64,000 nucleotides of DNA, taken from assembly GCF_056746865.1 (NCBI RefSeq), contig NZ_CM163382.1. One strand, given 5' to 3'. The notes below the pieces were generated by a model. That model was not told where the DNA came from. It saw only the letters and a program-made list of their open reading frames with translations, and searched no databases. The position numbers were made by a program, and so were the translations under genes. The stretch's first letter is position 1. Every line of letters starts with the position of its first letter. Positions 56,820-59,800 of this stretch are shown piece by piece.

Positions 56820-59800
56820 ATGGACGTCAGTCGCAGACAATTTTTTAAAATCTGCGCGGGCGGTATGGCTGGAACAACGGTAGCGGCATTGGGCTTTGCC
56901 CCGAAGCAAGCACTGGCTCAGGCGCGAAACTATAAATTATTACGCGCGAAAGAGATCCGTAACACCTGCACATACTGTTCCGTAGGTTGCGGGCTATTGA
57001 TGTATAGCCTGGGTGATGGCGCGAAAAACGCCAGAGAAGCGATTTATCACATTGAAGGTGACCCGGATCATCCGGTAAGCCGTGGTGCGCTGTGCCCGAA
57101 AGGGGCCGGTTTGCTGGATTACGTCAACAGCGAAAACCGTCTGCGCTACCCGGAATATCGTGCGCCAGGTTCTGACAAATGGCAGCGCATTAGCTGGGAT
57201 GAAGCATTCTCCCGTATTGCGAAGCTGATGAAAGCTGACCGTGACGCTAACTTTATTGAAAAGAACGAGCAGGGCGTAACGGTAAACCGTTGGCTTTCTA
57301 CCGGTATGCTGTGTGCCTCCGGTGCCAGCAACGAAACCGGGATGCTGACTCAAAAATTTGCCCGCTCCCTCGGGATGCTGGCGGTAGACAACCAGGCGCG
57401 CGTCTGACACGGACCAACGGTAGCAAGTCTTGCTCCAACATTTGGTCGCGGTGCGATGACCAACCACTGGGTGGATATCAAAAACGCTAACGTCGTGATG
57501 GTGATGGGCGGTAACGCTGCTGAAGCGCATCCCGTCGGTTTCCGCTGGGCGATGGAAGCGAAAAACAACAACGATGCAACCTTGATCGTTGTCGATCCCC
57601 GTTTTACGCGTACCGCTTCTGTGGCGGATATTTACGCACCTATTCGTTCCGGTACGGACATTACGTTCCTGTCTGGCGTTTTGCGCTACCTGATCGAAAA
57701 CAACAAAATCAACGCCGAATACGTTAAGCATTACACCAACGCCAGCCTGCTGGTGCGTGATGATTTTGCTTTCGAAGATGGCCTGTTCAGCGGTTATGAC
57801 GCTGAAAAACGCCAGTACGATAAATCGTCCTGGAACTATCAGTTCGATGAAAACGGCTATGCGAAACGCGATGAAACACTGACTCATCCGCGCTGTGTGT
57901 GGAACTTGCTGAAAGAGCACGTTTCCCGCTACACGCCGGACGTCGTTGAAAACATCTGCGGTACGCCAAAAGCAGACTTCCTGAAAGTGTGTGAAGTGCT
58001 GGCCTCCACCAGCGCGCCGGATCGCACAACCACCTTCCTGTACGCGCTGGGCTGGACGCAGCACACCGTGGGTGCGCAGAACATCCGCACCATGGCGATG
58101 ATCCAATTGCTGCTCGGTAACATGGGTATGGCTGGTGGCGGCGTGAACGCATTGCGTGGTCACTCCAACATTCAGGGCCTGACCGACTTAGGTCTGCTCT
58201 CAACCAGCCTGCCGGGTTATCTGACGCTGCCGTCAGAAAAACAGGTTGATTTGCAGTCGTATCTGGAAGCGAATACGCCGAAAGCGACGCTGGCTGATCA
58301 GGTGAACTACTGGAGCAACTATCCGAAGTTCTTCGTTAGCCTGATGAAATCTTTCTACGGTGATGCTGCACAGAAAGAGAACAACTGGGGCTATGACTGG
58401 CTGCCGAAGTGGGACCAGACCTACGACGTCATCAAGTATTTCAACATGATGGATGAAGGCAAAGTCACCGGTTATTTCTGCCAGGGCTTTAACCCGGTTG
58501 CGTCCTTCCCGGACAAAAACAAAGTGGTGAGCTGCCTGAGCAAGCTGAAGTACATGGTGGTTATCGATCCGCTGGTGACTGAAACCTCTACCTTCTGGCA
58601 GAACCACGGCGAGTCGAACGATGTCGATCCGGCGTCCATTCAGACTGAAGTATTCCGTCTGCCTTCGACCTGCTTTGCTGAAGAAGATGGTTCTATTGCT
58701 AACTCCGGTCGCTGGTTGCAGTGGCACTGGAAAGGTCAGGACGCGCCGGGCGAAGCGCGTAACGACGGCGAAATTCTGGCGGGTATCTACCATCATCTGC
58801 GCGAGCTGTACCAGGCCGAAGGTGGTAAAGGCGTAGAACCGCTGATGAAGATGAGCTGGAACTACAAGCAGCCGCACGAACCGCAATCTGACGAAGTAGC
58901 TAAAGAGAACAACGGCTACGCGCTGGAAGATCTCTATGATGCCAATGGCGTGCTGATTGCGAAGAAAGGTCAGTTGCTGAGTAGCTTTGCGCATCTGCGT
59001 GATGACGGTACAACCGCATCTTCTTGCTGGATCTACACCGGTAGCTGGACAGAGCAGGGCAACCAGATGGCTAACCGCGATAACTCCGACCCGTCCGGTC
59101 TGGGGAATACGCTGGGATGGGCCTGGGCGTGGCCGCTCAACCGTCGCGTACTCTACAACCGTGCTTCGGCGGATATCAACGGTAAACCGTGGGATCCGAA
59201 ACGGATGCTGATCCAGTGGAACGGCAGCAAGTGGACGGGTAACGATATTCCGGACTTCGGCAATGCCGCGCCAGGTACACCAACCGGACCGTTTATCATG
59301 CAGCCGGAAGGGATGGGACGCCTGTTTGCCATCAACAAAATGGCGGAAGGTCCGTTCCCGGAACACTACGAGCCAATCGAAACGCCGCTGGGCACTAACC
59401 CGCTGCATCCGAACGTGGTGTCTAACCCGGTTGTTCGTCTGTATGAACAAGACGCGCTGCGGATGGGTAAAAAAGAGCAGTTCCCGTATGTGGGTACGAC
59501 CTATCGTCTGACCGAGCACTTCCACACCTGGACCAAGCACGCGTTGCTCAACGCAATTGCTCAGCCGGAACAGTTTGTGGAAATCAGCGAAACGCTGGCG
59601 GCGGCGAAAGGCATTAATAATGGCGATCGTGTCACTGTCTCAAGCAAGCGTGGATTTATCCGCGCGGTGGCGGTGGTAACGCGCCGTCTGAAACCGCTGA
59701 ATGTAAACGGTCAGCAGGTTGAAACGGTGGGTATTCCAATCCACTGGGGCTTTGAGGGTGTCGCGCGTAAAGGTTATATCGCTAACACTCTGACGCCGAA

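Follow-up and report, generated by a model that had tools for sequence, protein, structure and literature searches.

Does the TGA triplet lying in frame inside a formate dehydrogenase gene of Escherichia coli end translation, or is it read as selenocysteine (Sec)? The question is raised by two open reading frames on the + strand of the window, by which we mean the whole 64-kb stretch of DNA analyzed. A mechanical listing of open reading frames places them at 56820-57407 (195 aa) and 57456-59867 (803 aa). A sequence-only reading of this DNA had taken the two as a single gene, fdnG, split by the six-frame track at a Sec codon, with an adjacent palindrome as the candidate stem of a SECIS element.

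Gene Identity and Reading Frame

The coordinates of the two open reading frames were verified, and frame arithmetic showed that they share one frame. Starting from the ATG at 56820, only two in-frame stops were encountered, TGA 57405-57407 and TAA 59865-59867. Translation across the TGA gave ..AVDNQARV*HGPTVASLAPTFGRGAMTNHW.., in which the peptide right after the stop is HGPTVASLAPTFGRG, and the nucleotide context of the triplet is cgc gtc TGA cac gga cca acg gta gca agt ctt gct cca. The gene and its neighbors are as follows.

56820..59867, + strand: fdnG coding sequence, formate dehydrogenase-N alpha subunit, 1015 codons plus TAA, with one internal TGA
59880..60764, + strand: fdnH, Fe-S (4Fe-4S) beta subunit, by RefSeq transfer from E. 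coli 042 and the Pfam domains Fer4_11 and Form-deh_trans
60757..61410, + strand: fdnI, cytochrome b gamma subunit, by RefSeq annotation and the Pfam domain Ni_hydr_CYTB

Judged from its sequence, the gene is fdnG, as had been proposed. When the TGA was entered as X, the product matched TIGR01553, the NCBIfam equivalog for formate dehydrogenase-N subunit alpha, with 1624.2 bits against a cutoff of 814.2, and this match was continuous over residues 2-1014, across the TGA. The read-through product was near-identical to the crystal-structure chain 1KQF_A, with which it aligned end to end over residues 1-1015 and from which it differed at a few residues (D127E, F342L and A666S among those listed). 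The TGA falls inside the Pfam Molybdopterin domain PF00384, the match to which covers profile positions 1-68 ahead of the triplet and 97-300 behind it, so that a genuine stop there would bisect a domain. At the matching place in E. coli 042, RefSeq/PGAP gives fdnG as one intact, unflagged CDS of 3048 nt. The genes fdnG-fdnH-fdnI form one operon, in which both operon partners, FdnH and FdnI, are present. Upstream of fdnG, RefSeq lists yddG as well as a porin gene of the ompC type.

The window is E. coli chromosome of a non-K-12 background, and the closest strains were 2017C-4173W12 and 042. Its first 50 kb were collinear with NZ_CP030768.1 at 99.992% identity, with 3 mismatches and 1 gap. The fdn region was 100% identical to that of several strains, including 042 and 2017C-4173W12; the comparison of the 042 fdn region over 11.3 kb gave 2 mismatches.

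The TGA Codon and the Selenocysteine Position

57405..57407, + strand: UGA codon 196, assigned as decoded to selenocysteine from its place opposite X196 (Sec) of 1KQF_A

The earlier proposal that this TGA occupies the known Sec position was borne out by the alignment with the solved enzyme. Residue 196 of 1KQF_A, a Sec stored as X, aligned with the TGA, and this residue is the Mo-ligand selenocysteine of the structure. The TGA also constitutes model positions 4-6 of a match to the Rfam family SECIS_3, the paired part of which lies directly behind it. Internal Sec TGA codons are carried by fdnG, fdoG and fdhF (PMC11903333; PMC3160892); in addition, Sec ligates Mo in the Fdh-N structure, and both the Fdh-N and Fdh-O activities are lost in a selC mutant (PMC3160892). 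The original demonstration is that of Berg et al. 1991 (pmid 1834669), as cited in PMC3160892. Taken together, these data indicate that UGA codon 196 of fdnG is almost certainly recoded to Sec under the direction of the SECIS element at 57408-57450, and that this strain would incorporate Sec likewise.

Anatomy of the SECIS Element

57402..57460, + strand: SECIS element, full model 1-59 of Rfam RF01989 (SECIS_3), 84.3 bits, gathering score 63, E = 1e-19
57408..57450, + strand: whole SECIS stem-loop including the lower helix, by the Rfam consensus structure and the minimum free energy (MFE) fold
57419..57436, + strand: apical SECIS hairpin, the presumed SelB-binding part, by the MFE fold, the centroid fold and the Rfam model

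The SECIS_3 match was the sole gathering-level Rfam match (release 15) in the 64-kb window. The fdhF-type model SECIS_2 (RF01988) gave the same element 28.8 bits, below its gathering score of 70, and the element, although it would act in the manner of the fdhF SECIS, is therefore filed under the sister family SECIS_3. It lies inside the coding region, with the paired part running from 57408, directly 3' of the in-frame UGA, and the frame is open to 59867.

Folding of the region placed the apical hairpin at 57419-57436 in both the MFE and the centroid structure, the energy itself being unremarkable. The 5' arm extends over 57419-57426, the loop GUC over 57427-57429 and the 3' arm over 57430-57436. 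At the base of the upper helix, G57419-C57436 and G57420-C57435 are followed by a bulged U57421, and the top consists of A57422-U57434, G57423-C57433, C57424-G57432, A57425-U57431 and A57426-U57430. This upper stem comprises 7 bp, with AGCAA/UUGCU (57422-57426 with 57430-57434) closing the GUC loop, and its pair probabilities were 0.55-1.00 regardless of the folded context, from 18 to 261 nt. Past an internal loop, a weaker lower helix pairs 57408-57417 with 57442-57450 in the Rfam register; the E. coli MFE register is shifted by one.

The palindrome AGCAAG-T-CTTGCT at 57422-57434 lies within the apical hairpin and corresponds to its top five pairs plus the loop. The suggestion that it is a SECIS stem thus held in part: the palindrome does belong to a SECIS_3 element, but six pairs cannot, for steric reasons, close on a loop of a single nucleotide, and the outermost palindromic pair therefore opens into the GUC loop. 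According to PMC4605307, the stem of a bacterial SECIS element has 6-8 bp and its loop contains a conserved G some 20 nt past the UGA; the 7-bp stem fits this description, as does loop G57427, which lies 20 nt after A57407. Counted from the U of the UGA, U57421 is position 17, G57427 is position 23 and U57428 is position 24, and at the sequence level these fall in the same consensus columns of SECIS_2. Positions U17, G23 and U24 are, we presume, the SelB contacts in the fdhF prototype.

Expectation from Chance

Perfect 6+6 inverted repeats with a 1-nt spacer occurred 21 times in the window against 15.0 ± 2.9 in shuffled sequences, so that the palindrome alone is no evidence, and its enrichment was rejected as an argument in its own right. 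A perfect 5-bp hairpin was found within the next 42 nt for 13.7% of the 1323 TGA triplets in the window. The MFE of 57402-57460 was -17.4 kcal/mol (z = -0.77), and 39 of 200 shuffles folded at least as well; folding stability was likewise rejected as evidence for a SECIS element. Since neither palindrome frequency nor folding energy rises above chance, the case rests on homology, position and evolution, including covariation. The SECIS_3 covariance-model match and the evolutionary evidence are both far above chance.

Conservation and Covariation

The 59-mer was identical in 5432 of 5433 matching E. coli records, which come from 5425 of 5426 genomes. In 5237 records, by contrast, the surrounding 3.3-kb region matched the window at only 95-99% identity. 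The single exception to the 59-mer was a genome apparently without fdnG, showing its fdoG copy only.

Across species, representative genomes were scanned with a DNA pattern that fixed the encoded peptide and left third positions free. The scan yielded at least 120 loci in Gamma-, Beta- and Alphaproteobacteria, with 54 distinct 59-mers among the matches listed. In these 54 distinct proteobacterial sequences among the matches listed, the upper stem was 100% paired; because the search pattern fixes most of the hairpin bases, this observation is free of bias at the N positions and in the flanks only. At the third positions of Val GUN and Ala GCN, the pair 57422/57434 covaried (GC in 40 sequences, AU in 13 and GU in 1), and at those of Ala GCN and Leu CUN, 57425/57431 also covaried (AU 38, CG 9 and GC 7). 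In the same 54 distinct sequences, Thr ACN always had G at its free third position, which faces a fixed C. In a control in which the 3' partners were slid, pairing fell to 25-48%. The lower helix was 83-85% paired across species, and its register differed between the enteric and the Pseudomonas types. When the MFE register was set against that of Rfam across species, neither proved well conserved, and we therefore make no claim on the exact lower helix.

The 59-mer was letter-identical in 42 Enterobacterales loci spread over at least 18 genera, among them Yersinia, Providencia, Photorhabdus, Serratia, Hafnia, Morganella and Klebsiella. Synonymous variation was then compared in 47 enteric-type loci, the flanks of which were all different (mean flank identity 79%), using codons of invariant amino acids only; these loci are related by descent and had been gathered with a pattern that includes the hairpin. 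Among third positions that the search had not constrained, the majority-base fraction was 0.974 in codons +2 to +16 as compared with 0.653 in the flanks (Mann-Whitney p = 8e-7). The footprint started sharply at codon -1 (57402) and faded between codons +16 and +21 (57455-57470).

In the fdhF literature, an apical hairpin of approximately 18 nt is held to be sufficient for SelB. It is mildly unexpected, then, that the synonymous constraint in Enterobacterales reaches well beyond such a hairpin, from codon -1 to at least codon +16 and possibly to +21 (57402 to ~57470). One possible explanation is that in the SECIS_3 class the lower helix and the 3' flank have an additional sequence-specific function, as yet undescribed, for which contact with the ribosomal mRNA entry site, the timing of unwinding or SelB-dependent regulation could be candidates. 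We consider this explanation unlikely; protein active-site constraint, codon preference and gene conversion between paralogues may alternatively account for the extended constraint.

Selenocysteine Machinery and Proposed Mechanism

No tRNA gene was found within the 64-kb window, nor was any of selA, selB, selC and selD, which places selC elsewhere, as expected. The selABCD genes, on the presence of which the earlier proposal had been made to depend, proved to be near-universal at the species level: selC, encoding tRNA-Sec, was found in 5424 of 5426 complete E. coli genomes, and selB-selA and selD were each found in 5425 of the 5426. Going by these species-wide counts, the sel genes are virtually certain to be present in the window's own genome.

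By analogy with established work in E. coli, the selC product would be charged through SerRS, SelA and SelD to give Sec-tRNASec. SelB, together with GTP and Sec-tRNASec, would bind the apical loop and the bulged U via its C-terminal winged-helix domains, and through the fixed spacing the tRNA would be brought to the UGA in the A site when the ribosome arrives at the foot of the hairpin. Sec-tRNASec would then outcompete release factor 2 (RF2), with the insertion of Sec instead of termination, after which the hairpin would be unwound and translated as the peptide that follows the UGA. On the same analogy, we infer that in this strain SelB binds the hairpin and selenium is in fact incorporated.

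Alternative Explanations

Cysteine is found at this site in many FdnG-family homologues of other bacteria, and the TGA might accordingly be a sequencing or assembly error for TGC. The probability of such an error is practically nil, as the same TGA-containing 59-mer is present in all but one of the 5426 independently assembled E. coli genomes and a TGA-anchored pattern matched at least 120 loci of other species in the scan above. A genuine stop, with fdnG being a pseudogene or being split into products of 195 aa and 803 aa, would agree with the way in which the mechanical listing divides the gene at the TGA, and with the entry of the two fragments as separate proteins in many public gene calls. 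Against this stand the near-invariance of the TGA and its 59-nt context in the E. coli records, the single Pfam domain and the TIGR01553 match that run across the triplet, and the solved structure, which is one 1015-residue chain with Sec at this place, together with the SECIS match exactly behind the TGA. Moreover, a decaying pseudogene would not show synonymous constraint stronger here than elsewhere in the gene, and a full-length, selenium-containing FdnG of ~113 kDa has already been reported for K-12 (PDB 1KQF; PMC3160892). We regard a genuine stop as very improbable, if somewhat less so than a sequencing error.

Stop-codon readthrough stimulated by downstream structure occurs in other systems, and most of the decoding of the UGA might be due to a near-cognate or suppressor tRNA (Trp or Cys), with the hairpin only slowing the ribosome; the thermodynamically unremarkable fold (z = -0.77) would suit such a role. 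The hairpin, however, fits a SECIS-specific covariance model including its loop and bulge, nearly every E. coli genome has the sel genes, Sec is seen in the crystal structure and Fdh-N activity is selC-dependent (PMC3160892), which leaves this kind of readthrough only a very slim chance, slightly better than that of a genuine stop. The palindrome might also be bound by a protein at the DNA level, or be an inverted repeat that arose by chance and has no part in recoding, as its frequency within chance (21 against ~15 expected) would allow. Yet the covariation preserves RNA pairing, from G-C to A-U to C-G and with G-U once, rather than DNA sequence; the conserved bulge makes the element asymmetric, which is more in keeping with RNA than with a symmetric DNA operator, and the position relative to the UGA is fixed. 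This explanation is hardly credible, and falls between a genuine stop and a sequencing error in probability. We therefore retain the decoding of UGA 196 as Sec, directed by the SECIS_3 element, a reading that none of the observations contradicts.

Annotation and Significance

Public gene calls list each of the exact 195-aa and 803-aa fragments as a separate protein on at least 1000 contigs. One copy of the 195-aa fragment was named 'sulfate ABC transporter substrate-binding protein'. Automated mis-calling of the gene, as suggested by the sequence-only reading, was thus seen in the form of split open reading frames but not in that of pseudogene flags, RefSeq/PGAP having annotated an intact CDS. 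The main significance of the locus is one of annotation hygiene, in that taking the TGA as a stop splits one of the three selenoprotein genes of E. coli. The gene fdnG is a classic case of a coding sequence that has to meet the demands of a protein active site and those of an RNA signal together, and the sharp synonymous footprint illustrates this dual constraint; nothing fundamentally new is added. The fdnG Sec196 codon with its SECIS_3 element is a textbook case, already known and well described, and hence of low interest.

Comparison with Known Elements

In comparison with fdnG of K-12 (RF01989, PDB 1KQF), the locus has the same gene, operon and codon position, and its 59-nt SECIS is identical to that of K-12 strains; there is no functional difference, the window strain being a non-K-12 E. 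coli.

The comparison with the SECIS elements of fdoG and fdhF, which had been proposed as a check, placed the former in the same family and the latter in its sister family. The fdoG (formate dehydrogenase-O) locus, arranged as fdhD-fdoGHI-fdhE, likewise carries a SECIS_3 element (80.6 bits) and has Sec at residue 196. Its element shares 58 of 59 nt and the same hairpin with that of fdnG, the one difference being a synonymous change from CAC to CAU at His197, in contrast to 74.7% nucleotide identity between the whole genes. The longest exact run between fdnG and fdoG in the whole gene was 62 nt, from 57411, and 20-codon windows from the Sec codon agreed at 59-60 of 60 bases as compared with a gene-wide mean of 44.9 ± 5.4. 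fdoG is regulated differently from fdnG.

The K-12 fdhF gene (formate dehydrogenase-H) carries the experimentally dissected prototype, a SECIS_2 element (RF01988, 87.1 bits). The fdhF and fdnG elements both start immediately after the UGA and share the core GUCUGACACGG..CC..CGGU.GCA.GUCU.GC.CC, with the bulged U after GG and the loop GU equally far from the UGA. They differ in the apical loop, which is GUC closed by an extra A-U pair in fdnG and GGUC in fdhF, and in the lower helix and the 3' arm. The host protein of the fdhF element is distantly related to FdnG, matching as 1AA6 at E = 2e-45 over the N-terminal part.

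Synonymous Constraint around the Selenocysteine Codon of fdnG

Two features of fdnG, the gene for the alpha subunit of formate dehydrogenase-N, are considered here:
57405-57407 (+), UGA selenocysteine (Sec) codon
57402-57460 (+), SECIS element of 59 nt (Rfam RF01989, SECIS_3), with its apical hairpin at 57419-57436

Across 47 enteric-type loci, we found a sharp onset of synonymous-site conservation at codon -1 relative to the Sec codon, continuing to approximately codon +16 to +21 (window 57402-57470). In these loci, the conserved stretch reached about 20 nt beyond the base-paired part of the Rfam SECIS_3 model, and well past the apical hairpin. 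The identical 59-mer was common to at least 18 genera of Enterobacterales.

Sec Formate Dehydrogenase Genes in Other Records

The deposited protein EFN8991448.1, named as a sulfate ABC transporter substrate-binding protein, is a 195-aa N-terminal fragment of FdnG that matches window 56820-57404 or a close variant of it. This name is clearly a mis-annotation, caused by the splitting of fdnG at the Sec codon. In E. coli O68:H12 strain 97.3 (NZ_CP061758.1), the single copy of SECIS_3 is located in the fdhD-fdoGHI-fdhE locus, and therefore fdnG seems to be missing from this genome; its fdoG gene carries the PGAP label "fdnG".

A contig of an uncultured Enterobacterales MAG (L023) contained two SECIS-pattern matches on the same strand (2250-2284 and 8164-8198), about 5.9 kb apart, an arrangement suggesting that two Sec-containing formate dehydrogenase alpha genes may lie there in tandem operons. 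Adjoining fdhF of K-12, downstream of yjcO, we observed four tandem Rfam matches to the REP-derived naRNA4 (L005:25-432), an array unrelated to the Sec/SECIS finding in fdnG.

Mobile, Secretion and Toxin-Antitoxin Elements in the Window

The coordinates of the type VI island and the ISAs1 remnant were transferred from the E. coli genome NZ_CP030768.1 (99.992% identical).

~32175-36347, orphan island of type VI secretion genes, flanked by yncG and yddH and encoding a PAAR protein, VgrG/TssI, an M35 peptidase and a hypothetical protein
~36557-37018, ISAs1 transposase remnant, after the type VI island
~40745-42093, IS1397 copy (IS3 family), inserted between nhoA and yddE
~12720-13358, ~22160-22333 and 61638-62200, several toxin-antitoxin loci, namely hicA/hicB, the orphan toxin gene ortT and, directly downstream of fdnI, yddM (an antitoxin of the HigA family) together with a toxin of the RelE/ParE family

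The M35 peptidase is a likely effector. The IS1397 transposase is produced via a programmed frameshift, which is a second recoding event in the window.

Upstream Region and N-Terminus of FdnG

The sequence TTGAT-TTCG-CGCAA at 56742-56755, 65-78 nt 5' of the fdnG start codon, resembles the FNR box consensus, TTGAT-N4-ATCAA. This candidate FNR box would agree with fdnGHI being induced under anaerobic conditions. The translated N-terminus of FdnG carries a twin-arginine motif, SRRQFFK (56829-56849). Such a motif fits export of the predicted selenoprotein to the periplasm by the Tat pathway, the route established for Fdh-N.
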